From positions 1-64,000 of IMG/VR virus record IMGVR_UViG_3300028394_000001: a stretch of DNA of 64,000 nt; one strand, given 5' to 3'. Numbering within the stretch: position 1 is the first letter of the stretch; the number at the start of each line of letters is the position of its first letter. Below, in pieces: positions 38,735 to 46,205 of this stretch. The notes under the pieces were generated by a model, which was not told the DNA's origin, did no database searches, and worked only from the letters and a program-made list of their open reading frames with translations. This DNA comes from a virus. Made by a program: the position numbers and the translations under genes.

Positions 38735-39113
38735 AGTAACTTTAACACAACCAGACGATTTTCTAAAAGTAAGAGAGACATTGACCAGAATTGGTGTTGC
38801 TTCGAAGAAGGACAAAACTTTATTCCAGTCTTGCCATATCTTACATAAACAAGGCAAATACTATATTGTACACTTTAAAGAATTGTTTGCACTTGACGGG
38901 AAACCGACAGATTTATCTGAAAATGATTTATCCCGTAGGAACGCCATTGCACTCCTATTAGAAGATTGGGGTTTAGTCAAGATTGTTAATGAAGCACAAG
39001 TACAACAACCTGAACCAATTTTTATTTCGCAAATCAAAATATTGTCACACAAAGAGAAGAATGAATGGCAATTAACACCTAAGTATAACATAGGCACTAA
39101 AAAGAAAATATAA
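38709..39113 (+). CDS. regA: Translational repressor
   Basis: DFLKVRETLTRIGVAS, CHILHKQGKYYIVHFKELF. Confidence 0.97.
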   Translation: MIGIQDLVEVTLTQPDDFLKVRETLTRIGVASKKDKTLFQSCHILHKQGKYYIVHFKELFALDGKPTDLSENDLSRRNAIALLLEDWGLVKIVNEAQVQQPEPIFISQIKILSHKEKNEWQLTPKYNIGTKKKI

Positions 39114-39505
39114 TGTCATATTCAAGCAAGGTTATAGACCATTACGAAAATCCAAGAAATGTTGGAAAATTTGTAGTTGATGATTCCATAGGAACAGGAA
39201 TGGTAGGCGCTCCTGCGTGTGGAGATGTGATGAAACTACAAATAAAAGTGGAAGATGGAATAATTACCGATGCTAAATTTAAAACATATGGATGCGGATC
39301 GGCGATTGCAAGCAGTAGTCTCGTCACTGAGATGGTTAAGGGACTCACTCTGGCACAAGCCGGAGAAATCAAAAATAATAGAATTGCGGCTGAGCTCGCC
39401 CTCCCTCCTGTCAAAATTCATTGCTCTATCCTTGCAGAAGATGCGGTCAGAGCAGCCATTAACGACTATCAAGGAAAACATGATAAACTTAACTGCCAGT
39501 GCTAA
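39113..39505 (+). CDS. iscU: Fe-S cluster scaffold
   Basis: DHYENPRNVG, APACGD, YGCGSAIASSS, LPPVKIHC. Confidence 0.96.
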   Translation: MSYSSKVIDHYENPRNVGKFVVDDSIGTGMVGAPACGDVMKLQIKVEDGIITDAKFKTYGCGSAIASSSLVTEMVKGLTLAQAGEIKNNRIAAELALPPVKIHCSILAEDAVRAAINDYQGKHDKLNCQC

Positions 39506-39791
39506 AGAACAAATAACAGAAATTCTTATGGATGAAGATGCTTCTTATGTGAGAGCTTTCATTTCAGGTGGTGGTTGTTCTGGTTTCAATTACGGTTTTA
39601 CTTTAGAAAGCCAAAAAGAAGAAGATGATATTTTGGTTGAAGACAATTTTATAATTGATGCACTAAGCATGCAACATTTTCTTGGTGCCACAATAGATTA
39701 TACAAGAGACAAATTAAAAGGTTCACAATTTGTTATAAAAAATCCAAATGCGAAAACAACTTGTGGTTGTGGAAGTAGTTTCAGCGTATAA
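39480..39791 (+). CDS. erpA: A-type Fe-S carrier (ErpA/IscA)
   Basis: GGGCSGFNYGF, NPNAKTTCGCGSSF; AAGGA SD before ATG 39480. Confidence 0.88.
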   Translation: MINLTASAKEQITEILMDEDASYVRAFISGGGCSGFNYGFTLESQKEEDDILVEDNFIIDALSMQHFLGATIDYTRDKLKGSQFVIKNPNAKTTCGCGSSFSV

Positions 39792-39794
39792 ATA
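39787..39794 (+). promoter_or_regulatory. T4-type late promoter
   Basis: TATAAATA. Confidence 0.75.
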
Positions 39795-39798
39795 TAAC

Positions 39799-39917
39799 AC
39801 AGGCCCACCTTAGGGCTGTTTGATGCTACGGTAAAAGGCGTCCGGGCAATTGCACTGTCACCCGTTAGTTGGCCCTGTATTAAGTAAGCAGGATTATCGT
39901 TACGCCTTCGGGGTAAC
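39799..39917 (+). ncRNA. Structured leader RNA of unknown family
   Basis: GC-rich successive hairpins in an intergenic gap. Confidence 0.5.
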
Positions 39918-39927
39918 AAATTATTAA

Positions 39928-39943
39928 CTCGCTTTTAAAGGAG
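39928..39943 (+). promoter_or_regulatory. ROSE-like RNA thermometer hairpin
   Basis: CTCGCTT pairs with the AAGGAG SD with a bulged G (UCGCU motif); heads the Hsp20 operon. Confidence 0.6.
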
Positions 39944-39949
39944 CAAAAA

Positions 39950-40153
39950 ATGCTATCATATGCAAATATGGCTATTGACGCCATTCAATCCGGTAAATCT
40001 TCTTGGGTCAACACATTCATTAAAAACGAAAGTGTCAGCAAACCTATGCAAGAATTCATTACAGCACAATCCGCATACACCAAACAAGTCTGTAAGACTC
40101 TTTGGGAATTATCTGGTTCAGTTGCTGGTGATGTTTTTAAATCTAAGAAGTAA
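39950..40153 (+). CDS. Small phasin-like protein
   Basis: Strong SD; amphipathic helical sequence. Confidence 0.5.
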   Translation: MLSYANMAIDAIQSGKSSWVNTFIKNESVSKPMQEFITAQSAYTKQVCKTLWELSGSVAGDVFKSKK

Positions 40154-40163
40154 GGAGAATATT

Positions 40164-40613
40164 ATGACATATATTAAAGATGTATTTGGTAATGACCTTT
40201 TTGGTAAACTTCAACCTTTCACAATCGGCTTTGACGAAACAATGGATATGTTGCGTAAAACTGCCGAACAAACACAAAAGGCTGTTGGTTATCCGCCATA
40301 TAACATCAAGCAAGTAAAAGAAAACAAGTACGTCATTGAAATGGCAGTTGCTGGTTTTGCTAAAACTGACCTTGAGATTACTATGGACGGAAACAAGCTT
40401 CTAGTCAAAGGTTCAACCAAAGATGAAGAAGGTGAACAATTCCTATACAAAGGTATTGCAAACCGTGGATTTGAACGTGCTTTTACTTTGAATGACAAAG
40501 TTGAAATCAAAGATGCAGAACTGGTAAACGGTATGCTTAAAATTTGGTTGGAAAACATCGTCAAGGCTCAAGATGCCATTAAGAAAATTGGCATCAAGGA
40601 CAAATCAGAATGA
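40164..40613 (+). CDS. Small heat-shock protein Hsp20 (IbpA-like)
   Basis: YPPYNI, MAVAGF, YKGIANRGFERAF, NGML; AAGGAG SD before ATG 40164. Confidence 0.93.
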   Translation: MTYIKDVFGNDLFGKLQPFTIGFDETMDMLRKTAEQTQKAVGYPPYNIKQVKENKYVIEMAVAGFAKTDLEITMDGNKLLVKGSTKDEEGEQFLYKGIANRGFERAFTLNDKVEIKDAELVNGMLKIWLENIVKAQDAIKKIGIKDKSE

Positions 40614-43092: not shown

Positions 43093-43121
43093 TTGACAGA
43101 AGCATCGACTTCTGTTACACT
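43093..43121 (+). promoter_or_regulatory. sigma70-type promoter P1 of the tRNA array
   Basis: TTGACA-17 nt-TACACT. Confidence 0.8.
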
Positions 43122-43147: not shown

Positions 43148-43175
43148 TGTTCTTTAAAAAGTAAGTGTAATTTGT
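43148..43175 (+). promoter_or_regulatory. rrn boxA-like antitermination leader 1
   Basis: TGTTCTTTAAAAA followed by TAAGTGTAATTTGT, shared with leader 2. Confidence 0.65.
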
Positions 43176-43249
43176 TGGGGCATTGTGTAGTGATAGCACA
43201 GGAGACTTTGAATCTCTTAGTCTAGGTTTGATTCCTAGTGCCCCTGCCA
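43176..43249 (+). tRNA. tRNA-Gln(TTG)
   Basis: Loop CTTTGAA; GCCA end. Confidence 0.88.
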
Positions 43250-43391
43250 TATTGAAACATATTTTAAAATCCAGTAACTTTCTAGCACGTCCGGCCGGCA
43301 ATCTAGAAAGCAACCCGTAGAGGGGTAAGAGTCGAAAGAGTGATGGATAATCGGCGGTGAGAATCCGCAGAAAGTGTGTTTCAATATGGTA
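43245..43391 (+). ncRNA. Long-stem T-loop RNA B1 (Y RNA/YrlA-like)
   Basis: TGCCATATTGAAACATAT pairs with GTGTGTTTCAATATGGTA; internal GCGG-TGAGAAT-CCGC. Confidence 0.6.
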
Positions 43392-43438
43392 ATGTTATCT
43401 GCAGGTAGCATCCATACTGGGGAGTAATTGCCCTCAGG

Positions 43439-43518
43439 AACTCGTAGTCTTCTAGTGGTAAGAAGCCCCATTAAAGGGGTGAACACAGGTTCGATTCCTG
43501 TCTACAATGAGTTTGCTA
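43439..43518 (+). ncRNA. tRNA-like element with a truncated anticodon arm
   Basis: Canonical D and T arms; anticodon arm CCCC-ATTAAA-GGGG; bulged acceptor; ends GCTA. Confidence 0.6.
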
Positions 43519-43616
43519 TATAAGAACACATTGCATGCCTGACCGAAAAAGTCGTGGTAAACTACAAGAGAAAGAGGTTCGAATCCTCGGGACTGGTAGT
43601 GTGTTCCTATATGGTA
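43514..43616 (+). ncRNA. Long-stem T-loop RNA B2
   Basis: TGCTATATAAGAACACAT pairs with GTGTGTTCCTATATGGTA; internal GAGG-TTCGAAT-CCTC. Confidence 0.6.
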
Positions 43617-43623
43617 AAATTTA

Positions 43624-43715
43624 GGAAGATGATGCAGCTGGGATGGTCCGGCGACTAGCCTTGAAAACTAGGTTCTCAGAAATGGGATGGGGTTCGACTC
43701 CTCCGTCTTCCGCCA
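43624..43715 (+). tRNA. tRNA-Ser(TGA), 8/4 fold
   Basis: 8-bp acceptor GGAAGATG/CGTCTTCC; 4-bp T stem; loop CTTGAAA; G73. Confidence 0.82.
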
Positions 43716-43721
43716 AAAATT

Positions 43722-43808
43722 GGAGAGTGGGCTGGATGGTAAGGCACCGGATTGCTAATCCGACGCTCCGAAAGGGGCGAGTGGGTTCGACTCCCACACT
43801 CTCCGCCA
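43722..43808 (+). tRNA. tRNA-Ser(GCT)
   Basis: Loop TTGCTAA; long variable arm. Confidence 0.92.
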
Positions 43809-43813
43809 AATTT

Positions 43814-43891
43814 GTACAGATGGCCGAGCGGTCCAAGGCAACAGTCTGCAAAACTGTAAAACCGTGGGTTCAAATCCCACTCTGTACTCCA
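43814..43891 (+). tRNA. tRNA-Cys(GCA)
   Basis: Loop CTGCAAA; U73. Confidence 0.93.
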
Positions 43892-43927
43892 GTATGTTGT
43901 TTTTTTACAACAATGTACCGAAAAGTG

Positions 43928-43955
43928 TTGACAAAGTGTGTGGTTGTGTTATACT
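43928..43955 (+). promoter_or_regulatory. sigma70-type promoter P2 of the tRNA array
   Basis: TTGACA-16 nt-TATACT. Confidence 0.75.
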
Positions 43956-43965
43956 CCATGCATGA

Positions 43966-44023
43966 GTTGAGAAAGTCATCGAACTTCTCAACAAGGCTCA
44001 TTAAAAAAATAAGTGTAATTTGT
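43966..44023 (+). promoter_or_regulatory. boxB-like hairpin plus boxA-like leader 2
   Basis: GTTGAGAA...TTCTCAAC hairpin; GGCTCATTAAAAA; TAAGTGTAATTTGT. Confidence 0.6.
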
Positions 44024-44098
44024 GCTCCCGTCGTCTACTGGCTAGGACGCTGCCCTTTCAAGGCGGAGAAGACGGATCGAAACCGTTCGGGAGTACCA
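44024..44098 (+). tRNA. tRNA-Glu(TTC)
   Basis: Loop CTTTCAA; variant T loop ATCGAAA. Confidence 0.9.
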
Positions 44099-44178
44099 TA
44101 GATAAACGCATTACCTCATAAGCCTGTCGGTGAAAACTGCTGTTACGCTTTTTGAGACTGGTGTGTTTTTCTATGGTA
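44094..44178 (+). ncRNA. Long-stem RNA B3
   Basis: TACCATAGATAAACGCAT pairs with GTGTGTTTTTCTATGGTA. Confidence 0.58.
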
Positions 44179-44603: not shown

Positions 44604-44790
44604 ATCTCGTTACTACTTTCGTTAAAGTAGCGTTTGATTAGCGATAGAGATCCGGTGGCAGAAGACCGTTAGTGAGGAGAACCCTCTGAATCTGATAGGC
44701 AGTATTCCTCTGCACACAGACGTTAGAATAAAAGGAATGGACAGAGTAACTGCTCAATCAAGGGCTGGCGTAGAACCCAGTAGCTTGTAC
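44604..44790 (+). ncRNA. Unidentified structured RNA between tRNA-Tyr and tRNA-Ala
   Basis: Multiple hairpins; no credible ORF. Confidence 0.45.
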
Positions 44791-45110: not shown

Positions 45111-45180
45111 TAGGATGCGTTCAGCAAATTTTATACATTGAACTTTTAATTCAAACCGTAAAAAAGCATCCTGTTGTTTT
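45111..45180 (+). ncRNA. CAGCAA-scaffold RNA A1 carrying a Lys(UUU) anticodon stem-loop mimic
   Basis: AGGATGC/GCATCCT stem; GTTCAGCAA; TTGAA-CTTTTAA-TTCAA. Confidence 0.7.
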
Positions 45181-45331: not shown

Positions 45332-45406
45332 GGTCATATGACGTAGACGGATGCGTAGCGGTCTCATAAGCCGACGAGAGTGGCTCGGTACCACTTATGA
45401 CCACCA
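45332..45406 (+). tRNA. tRNA-CAT (Met or Ile2), atypical T loop
   Basis: Loop CTCATAA; T loop CTCGGTA. Confidence 0.8.
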
Positions 45407-45716: not shown

Positions 45717-46205
45717 ATGAAAGATTTTGATATTGAAAAAGTGAAGCAATTCATTGTGAATCAAGGACCAGATACTAAAATCTATCTTGGTGCCGATTCA
45801 GAAAGATTGCGTGTTGATGGCGTATGGTATGCAGATTACGCATTAGCTGTTGTTGTTCATATTGATGGCCGCCACGGTTGTAAAATCTTTGGTTTCGTAA
45901 ACCGTGAATTAGATTACGACCACAAGAAAAGCAAACCTGCTATGCGACTGATGACAGAAGTTTATAAAGTTTCAGAATTGTTCCAAGCAATGTCTGATGT
46001 ACTTGAAGACCGCCACGTTGAAGTTCATTTGGACTTGAACAAATCAGTTGAACACGGAAGTTCTTGTGTTGTGCAGCAAGCGATTGGTTATATCAAAGGT
46101 ACATGTAATGTGACACCAATGGTTAAACCTGATGCACCTGCAGCAAGTTTCTGTGCAGATAGGTTGAAACGTATTTTGGCTGAACAAGAATTGGCCGAAG
46201 CGTAA
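45717..46205 (+). CDS. RNase H-like YkuK/DUF458-type protein
   Basis: IYLGADS, RLMTEV, EVHLDLN, KPDAPAASFCAD. Confidence 0.8.
   Translation: MKDFDIEKVKQFIVNQGPDTKIYLGADSERLRVDGVWYADYALAVVVHIDGRHGCKIFGFVNRELDYDHKKSKPAMRLMTEVYKVSELFQAMSDVLEDRHVEVHLDLNKSVEHGSSCVVQQAIGYIKGTCNVTPMVKPDAPAASFCADRLKRILAEQELAEA

Follow-up and report, generated by a model that had tools for sequence, protein, structure and literature searches.

A conserved 19-bp stem frames unrelated small RNAs in a phage tRNA array and is a probable RNase III site

The tRNA array of the lake-type phage analyzed here raises the question of what the long-stemmed elements are that follow some of its tRNA genes. The window, i.e., the whole stretch of DNA that was analyzed, comprises 64,000 nucleotides (nt) and represents the first 64 kb of the complete virus record IMGVR_UViG_3300028394_000001 (170,520 bp), which carries T4-like replication genes (phrog_262 polymerase). 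With default ARAGORN settings, 27 tRNAs were called between 41384 and 49035, and three elements (E1, E2, and E3) are located among them. A first interpretation made from the letters of the window (the sequence-only reading) had taken them for a single family of non-coding RNAs (ncRNAs), either Ro-binding RNAs like the bacterial YrlA Y RNAs or processing-controlled cassettes. The elements are not one ncRNA family, however: what they have in common is a conserved 19-bp stem, and the cargo RNAs that it encloses are unrelated in all three. In the explanation favored here, which is considered probable, the stem is a standardized site for the RNase III of the host, and each element serves as a cassette from which a small stable RNA is expressed. 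The elements and their direct neighbors are the following:

43176..43249, + strand: tRNA-Gln(UUG), positions 72-76 of which are the first 5 nt of the E1 5′ arm
43245..43263, + strand: E1 5′ arm, stem pairs 1-19; predicted cut after 43253
43264..43372, + strand: E1 cargo, 109 nt, multi-hairpin, with a GCGG-UGAGAAU-CCGC hairpin at 43354-43368
43373..43391, + strand: E1 3′ arm; predicted cut after 43384
43392-43414, + strand: spacer hairpin 1, an 8-bp minihelix followed by CCA (from the fold and from relatives)
43417-43437, + strand: spacer hairpin 2, with an AGUAAUU-type loop (from the fold and from relatives)
43439..43518, + strand: pseudo-tRNA, the end of which is the start of the E2 5′ arm (Rfam tRNA model, 36 bits)
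43514..43532, + strand: E2 5′ arm; predicted cut after 43522
43533..43597, + strand: E2 cargo, 65 nt, four-way junction (from alignment and covariation)
43598..43616, + strand: E2 3′ arm; predicted cut after 43609
44024..44098, + strand: tRNA-Glu(UUC), positions 72-76 of which are the start of the E3 5′ arm
44094..44112, + strand: E3 5′ arm; predicted cut after 44102
44113..44159, + strand: E3 cargo, 47 nt, interrupted hairpin
44160..44178, + strand: E3 3′ arm; predicted cut after 44171

On the + strand of the window, the 5′ arm pattern occurs exactly three times (43245, 43514, and 44094), as does the 3′ arm GTGTGTT-N4-TATGGTA (43374, 43599, and 44161), in agreement with the sequence-only reading. 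The arms form a stem of 19-21 bp, and none of 200 shuffles folds as well as the whole elements (z = -5.67 for E1, -4.66 for E2, and -5.97 for E3). A scan combining a position weight matrix (PWM) with pairing returned E1-E3 as the sole elements in the 170.5-kb genome and zero elements in five shuffled genomes. Covariation had been claimed for the N4 blocks of all three elements; all four positions are paired in E1 only, and stem pair 10 is mismatched in E2 (A.C) and E3 (U.U). Likewise, the proposed pairing of the CCA in the precursor applies to E1 and E3, the arms of which begin 5 nt before the end of tRNA-Gln and tRNA-Glu, respectively, with the NCCA paired at a probability of about 1. The E2 arm begins on the GCUA end of the tRNA-like element and not on a CCA. 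T-loop hairpins were found in the cargos of E1 and E2 (43574-43588) and none in E3. When folded alone, the cargos are no more stable than shuffles (z = -1.3, +0.7, and -1.6 for E1, E2, and E3); for E2, the structure is supported by covariation. The three cargos belong to three different clusters.

Related loci (numbered with the prefix L) were collected by an exact scan for the 3′ arm, which gave at least 119 viral-contig loci, and by a two-arm pattern scan, which gave at least 120 metagenome loci. The collection was oriented by the tRNA strand and duplicates were removed; all family counts refer to the matches listed. In total, at least 449 distinct elements in at least 203 loci were obtained, nearly all within tRNA arrays. 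For the metagenome loci, tRNAs are located nearby in 119 of 120. Exactly 5 nt before the end of a tRNA (position 72) is the start of 225 of the 449 copies, and other close offsets are almost absent. A further 196 copies have no canonical tRNA directly upstream. The first 4 nt of the next tRNA are overlapped by 88 of the 449 copies, and half of these tRNAs are tRNA-Met. Among the 225 linked copies, 106 follow a tRNA-Lys(UUU), and Glu(UUC) and Gln(UUG) come next; these three are the thiouridine-34 tRNAs. The bias toward tRNA-Lys(UUU) is not only a search artefact, because it persists (66 of 139) in a scan that leaves positions 72-73 unconstrained.

Sequence conservation within the stem covers pairs 3-8 and 11-19. 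Pair 9 alternates between A-U and U-A by covariation, a mismatch is frequent at pair 10, and beyond the 19 conserved pairs a pair 20 is present in 84% of the copies. On the tRNA strand, 355 G.U stand against 30 A.C, an excess that places the structure at the RNA level. In the loci retrieved by cargo sequence alone, the stem is present in every distinct homolog displayed. The search of bacterial genomes revealed no cellular family; the stem-bearing pattern matches were three short contigs of metagenome-assembled genomes with tRNA arrays, which are probably mis-binned phage DNA, and one doubtful case. With Rfam, only tRNAs passed in the window at both thresholds, and E1-E3 matched no family, ribozyme families included. 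In 34 related loci, the Rfam matches listed include tRNA, GOLLD, permuted transfer-messenger RNA (tmRNA), and group I introns. GOLLD RNAs share tRNA arrays with the stems (L069:2633-3098 and L011:5129-5549), and in L069 a stem cassette begins directly after the GOLLD 3′ end. No tmRNA was called in the window by ARAGORN or Rfam.

The E1 cargo was found only in the close relatives L040 (identical), L240, and L241, always within the stem, and the E3 cargo is nearly invariant in five other phages, where it follows tRNA-Gln or tRNA-Glu. The E2 cargo was found in 36 viral loci. The spacer hairpins (43392-43437) have homologs in L246, L252, L093, L039, and L244, and their stems covary in relatives. 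The pseudo-tRNA, which contains D and T arms, a variable non-canonical anticodon arm, a 3-nt acceptor-stem bulge, and the GCUA end, has homologs in seven loci (L252, L246, L039, L052, L093, L069, and L006) with a GCA/GCUA-type end.

An E. coli RNase III site consists of a 4-bp proximal box (G-C, W, A-U, W) and a distal box with U-A/U.G at +10/+9, and one box set is enough (PMC1540722). These rules were slid along the family stem and 23 registers were scored. A single peak was obtained for a cut after arm position 9 (7.83 vs. 4.81 for the next-best register), and by permutation of the stem columns the observed score was reached in 1 to 3 of 10,000 trials (p = 1e-4 to 3e-4). A cut at the inner end of the stem was rejected with a score of at most 4.3. 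The continuous helix of about 20-22 bp expected of a bacterial RNase III substrate is matched by the 19 conserved pairs together with pair 20. At register 9, the upper half carries the distal box, with U.G at pair 18 in 71% and U-A at pair 19 in 94% of the copies; E3 has U.G at both pairs. Positions 2/3 of the proximal box agree in 99%/93% (upper half) and 99%/98% (lower half), positions 1/4 in 82%/98% of the lower and 11%/17% of the upper halves. Position 2, at which a G-C pair would block binding, corresponds to pair 12, an invariant A-U, and to pair 5, which is nearly invariant; E2 has a G-C at upper position 3. The complete lower proximal box at the peak register is formed by C75 and A76 of the tRNA and the following U and A, which would explain the fixed register of -5. 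The same role would explain why copies without an upstream tRNA keep Y4, A5, and U6 in 98-99%, whereas the full CCA is kept in 54%. An RNase III gene was found neither in the phage of the window nor in five other near-complete stem-bearing genomes, and the enzyme would thus be that of the host.

A generic stem finder that uses no family profile detected a stem behind tRNA-Phe of the Ralstonia phage RSP15 (NC_030948.1; L293:5306-5422), which has the same -5 register and agrees with 9 of 10 rules, and another such stem in the Synechococcus phage BUCT-ZZ01 (L295:4657-4783). In the latter, a hypothetical coding sequence is annotated over the stem and a permuted tmRNA call overlaps the 3′ arm. Cupriavidus ribosomal RNA (rRNA) stalks share the AGUGUG/CACACU run in another role and were counted as a resemblance only; the boxA motif type described below also stands before them.

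The proposed course of events starts with two host-type promoters, both accompanied by boxA-like leaders, that head the part of the array holding E1-E3:

43093..43121, + strand: sigma70-type promoter of the first tRNA/ncRNA transcript (10/12 match, extended -10 TG; consensus match only)
43148..43159, + strand: boxA-like antitermination sequence of the rRNA-leader type (from the sequence)
43928..43955, + strand: sigma70-type promoter of the second transcript, tRNA-Glu onward (11/12 match)

Judged by these matches, the promoters would produce long tRNA/ncRNA precursors. In the precursor, the arms would fold into the long stem supported by covariation, with the last five nt of the preceding RNA as its base. 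The tRNA C75-A76 and the next U-A would serve as the lower proximal box, and the upper half would contribute a proximal box and the UG/UA distal box. The predicted RNase III cuts fall behind arm position 9 on one side and, on the other, 7 nt short of where the 3′ arm ends. Three products would result: a tRNA with a 4-nt trailer behind the CCA; a cargo RNA with a closing stem of 9-12 bp and a 2-nt 3′ overhang (131, 87, and 69 nt for E1, E2, and E3); and the downstream piece, on which a short leader would remain for RNase P. The 7-bp duplex left behind (-4.5 to -7 kcal/mol) would melt, and exonucleases would trim the tRNA to its CCA; such trimming is an established tRNA pathway. This course corresponds to the proposal of the sequence-only reading that tRNA 3′ maturation is coupled to small-RNA release at an RNase III substrate, for which the sequence comparisons argue well.

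Several points weigh against this explanation. The seeds were picked by arm patterns and PWM, so the conservation of the arms is partly built in. The distal box is absent from the lower half, and the upper half has mostly A-U at position 1 and A.C (39%) or G-C (30%) at position 4. In an E. coli minimal substrate, G-C at position 4 lowers cleavage 14-fold (PMC1540722), and E1 carries G-C there. The box rules are those of E. coli and may not apply to the host of this phage. For most cargos, the predicted fold is no more stable than that of shuffles (mean z = -0.5), and no target of a cargo was indicated by any test run. Finally, the comparison with RNAIII of phage T5 discussed below rests on the ends annotated in GenBank, and RNase P could define the 3′ end of this RNA, which abuts tRNA-His.

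A first alternative is that the stem is not cut mid-way at all: RNase P and RNase E/Z would cut around it, as in the case of the intervening segment of a permuted tmRNA, and the whole stem-closed RNA, possibly bound by RNase III, would be the product. A G-C or mismatch at the scissile-adjacent pair, as in many copies, is a catalytic antideterminant in E. coli (PMC1540722). The overlap of 88 copies with the next tRNA fits this alternative as well, and so does the upper half-stem in its second role as the intervening stem of phage permuted tmRNAs, which holds the E2 cargo in L257, L260, and L262. In an uncut stem, however, the CCA and the 5′ end of the next tRNA would stay in a 19-bp helix (pairing probability about 1), so that the mature tRNA and the intact stem would be mutually exclusive. 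Furthermore, the full lower proximal box is conserved and both annotated ends of T5 RNAIII lie mid-stem. Taken together, an uncut stem appears unlikely.

The second alternative concerns a protein encoded in the same locus and the hairpin next to its gene:

47219..48649, + strand: DUF2828/DUF7788 protein with a Ro60-like fold (fold search)
48676..48709, + strand: cargo-less hairpin between the Ro-fold gene and tRNA-Leu (15 bp, z = -7.4)

Under this alternative, the stems would be helices bound by Ro60, and the elements would tether the 47219 protein in the manner of Y RNAs. The protein is Ro60-like in its fold, with the top Foldseek hits 9kop, 9l5y, and 2nvo (E of about 1e-6 to 1e-5; model pLDDT 64) and Ro60-structure matches that include Thermus phage phiLo; a sequence search of the PDB with the protein gave no match. 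A homolog is present in about 700 cultured-phage records. In the window, the gene lies on the same strand as the elements at a distance of 3-4 kb, and a conserved stem with a variable effector module follows the logic of Y RNAs; a T arm is present in E2. In contrast, neither this gene nor any TROVE gene is found in four of five complete or near-complete stem-bearing genomes. YrlA RNAs are defined by T, AS, and D stem-loops in that order (PMC4201824). In E2, the D-like GG precedes the T arm and an AS loop is missing, and E1 and E3 lack the module. The motif GNCGAAN0-1G is not enriched, with occurrences in 6 cargos vs. 4.7 in shuffled ones and within the first 40 nt in only 2 of 178; in the window there is one match in the 3′ half of E1 and none in E2 and E3. 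A search with the YrlA covariance model (RF02553), suggested earlier as a check, gave no hit on E1-E3; its only hit (22 bits, threshold 69) is on tRNA-Asp/Ile. A different family tracks the gene instead: four short-stem RNAs that start with TAGRNTRNGTWCAGCAA (the CAGCAA-motif family) are located in the window at 45112, 45262, 47006, and 47143, two of them directly upstream of the Ro-fold gene. Of 12 records with the Ro-fold gene, 11 contain this family, and among records without the gene only single hits occur, in 7 of 38. By co-occurrence, the CAGCAA-motif RNAs are the likelier Y-RNA-like partner of the Ro-fold protein. Because the YrlA motif and arm order are not found in the stems, the Ro gene is absent in four of five genomes, and another family tracks the gene, the stems are, on these sequence features, not Y RNAs, and a tethering role for the 47219 protein is highly improbable.

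The hairpin at 48676-48709, reported earlier at 48677-48710, lies one position upstream but does exist as an empty version of the stem; it aligns to stem pairs 4-18 and, as read from the sequence, agrees with 7 of 10 RNase III rules. Together with the weak predicted folds of most cargos, it could mean that the stems are merely punctuation for tRNA processing and that the enclosed sequence is discarded spacer. We give this very little credence in view of the cargos themselves, the conservation of which exceeds that of the arms when the contexts are unrelated: if copies with upstream flanks of unrelated sequence are compared, the identity is 0.89 for the cargo and 0.83 for the arms. A 29-nt cargo is identical in all 7 copies displayed of an 11-member family (L015:2601-2667, L097, L008, L066, L354, L406, and L329), which stand behind different tRNAs and have varying arms. 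The E2 family shows two-sided changes at 15 pairs, compared to 9.1 in shuffles and 0-4 when slid, and compensated changes affect the T stem and the first hairpin. The E2 cargo contains a 7-nt loop with GNAA, an invariant GG in a D-loop-like stretch (43554-43560), and the canonical T arm at 43574-43588. Because of the compensated T-stem changes and the invariant GG upstream of the T arm, it is a probable mimic of the tRNA elbow.

As a whole, the cargos measure between 29 and about 230 nt, with a median of 54, and about 239 clusters were distinguished among the listed copies (rough Chao1 estimate of about 580). Of 52 families with at least three members, 43 were found in at least two upstream contexts; a family is repeated within one locus in 1 of the 203 listed loci. 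The E2 cargo follows tRNAs Lys, Leu, Glu, Thr, Gln, Asn, and Arg and the pseudo-tRNA. It is also found inside the apparent intervening stem of a permuted tmRNA gene of phages, which shares the upper half-stem (L257, L260:6730-6838, and L262); the flanks there resemble those of the gene called by Rfam in L069. In the close relative L040, E1 is identical letter by letter, while a different cargo stands behind a tRNA-Glu that differs by one base; the sequence shared with the window stops at the outer 7 nt of each arm. An HNH-like open reading frame (recognized by eye) and a different tRNA take the place of the spacer, E2, and tRNA-Ser(UGA) in L040:6280-6750. By these comparisons, the cargos appear to behave as selected, mobile units. 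They would represent the payload of the cassettes, and recombination within the flanking tRNAs and arms would move them from slot to slot and from phage to phage.

Cargo swaps that break at the arm ends, and the exact -5 register at the tRNA ends, would also be expected if the arms were mainly DNA-level sites for recombination or insertion that target tRNA 3′ ends, comparable to integrons or miniature inverted-repeat transposable elements. The strong bias for G.U over A.C on the transcribed strand, the conserved U.G wobble, and the match to the RNase III boxes contradict this, and neither a target duplication nor a linked recombinase was seen, which leaves little probability for this alternative. 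It is least probable that a phage nuclease such as the RNase H-like protein encoded at 45717 (PF04308) cuts the stems: the gene (45717-46205) lies within the tRNA array and is present in three of five complete stem-bearing genomes but absent from the other two, and the stem fits the rules of host RNase III.

For the payload of the RNase III cassettes, a tentative guess is that the cargos are folded decoys or aptamers that bind host RNA-recognizing or defense proteins. This guess is made because of the diversity, turnover, and non-redundancy of the cargos and because of tRNA mimicry in a minority of them. T loops are the sole enriched motif in the cargos (15 vs. 0.6), with T arms in 15 of 178 cargo families, and most cargos contain neither a T loop nor a common motif. 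For GGA, hammerhead core, Shine-Dalgarno-like, and palindromic motifs no enrichment was observed, and mimicry of or antisense to E. coli rRNA showed no clear excess over shuffles. In a broader and more doubtful version, the cassettes would be an RNA counterpart of anti-defense gene islands: large freshwater phages would trade several hundred folded RNAs, each a decoy or inhibitor of a host defense or RNA-recognizing protein, and release them in bulk by RNase III together with tRNAs. If the cargos are decoys, they offer natural RNA inhibitors on a large and so far untapped scale, and the stem offers a ready-made module for small-RNA expression. The simple sequence rule yields exact predicted ends for several hundred uncatalogued conserved phage small RNAs.

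Some further features of the window were noted. The tRNA-Lys(UUU) gene begins 9 nt after E3. Two tRNAs were missed by default ARAGORN and picked up by Rfam, namely tRNA-Ser(UGA) at 43624-43715 and a second one at 45332-45403. Between tRNA-Tyr and tRNA-Ala, about 180 nt (44608-44790) are apparently structured and non-coding and have no Rfam match. The region 39113-40613 holds auxiliary genes: one for an IscU-like scaffold with 78% to Ralstonia (the nearest among plasmid records) and others, recognized by eye, for an IscA/ErpA-like protein, a phasin-like peptide, and a small heat-shock protein. The host may plausibly be a betaproteobacterium.

Among known systems, phage T5 comes closest. Its RNAIII, RNA2H, and RNAIV (GenBank AY543070.1) are annotated as stable RNAs of unknown functions and, like the cassettes, are non-coding, located between tRNA genes, and closed by a long stem. 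By its annotated ends, RNAIII has its stem on the CCA of RNAI, starts 4 nt after it, and has a 2-nt 3′ overhang, which is the register predicted for E1 and E3; E2 differs by a GCUA where NCCA stands. The stem of RNAIII overlaps the 5′ end of tRNA-His, which the annotated 3′ end of the RNA abuts, and RNA2H also ends with a 2-nt overhang. RNAIII agrees with 7 of 10 rules in the generic scan but shares neither arm sequence nor cargo with the family, and T5 was not among the BLAST hits listed. T5 has few such RNAs, whereas the family of the window combines one standard stem with hundreds of cargos. The cassettes would work in a known way, because RNase III processing of phage transcripts is textbook knowledge and T5 RNAIII has the same architecture.

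The T7 early RNA R1.1 and the rRNA stalks resemble the stem in their helix of about 20 bp, the UA/UG distal box at +10/+9, and A-U at proximal positions 2 and 3; cleavage by RNase III is predicted to give a 2-nt 3′ overhang (PMC3867540). They separate mRNAs or rRNAs, whereas the stem of the window frames a small-RNA payload and uses the tRNA CCA as its lower box. It further differs in the A-U at position 1 of the upper box and the frequent mismatch next to the cut; natural R1.1 RNA is also non-standard at proximal position 4. Permuted tmRNA (RF04321; PMC11915505) likewise has a segment that is closed by a stem and placed between a CCA end and a 5′ end; its phage copies share the upper half-stem and in some cases contain the E2 cargo. 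This intervening segment is described as absent from the mature tmRNA and no role is given for it (PMC11915505), whereas the segment in the window has a separate gene on either side and is conserved in its own right. YrlA and phage Yrl Y RNAs (RF02553; PMC4201824; PMC12135203) share with the elements a terminal stem with a variable module, the T arm of E2, and a Ro-fold gene in the locus. The elements differ from them by the missing 5′-near GNCGAAN0-1G, the missing T-AS-D order, the independence from the Ro gene, and the restriction of T arms to a minority of the cargo families. The rnaC and rnaD of T4 (species 1 and 2) are unexplained stable RNAs in a phage tRNA cluster as well, without a long closing stem. 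In gut phages, tRNA 3′ trailers are also a site of action of theta ribozymes.

The family, a standard stem with hundreds of exchangeable, conserved payloads, was not described in the papers searched, although the 10,006 candidate RNAs of PMC10690425 may include some cargos unnamed, and Rfam had no match for the elements in the window. The stem suggests that phages use the tRNA's own CCA within an RNase III site, so that one cut would serve both the 3′ maturation of the tRNA and the release of a small RNA, and it makes an old puzzle testable, namely the unexplained stable RNAs in the tRNA clusters of T5 and T4.

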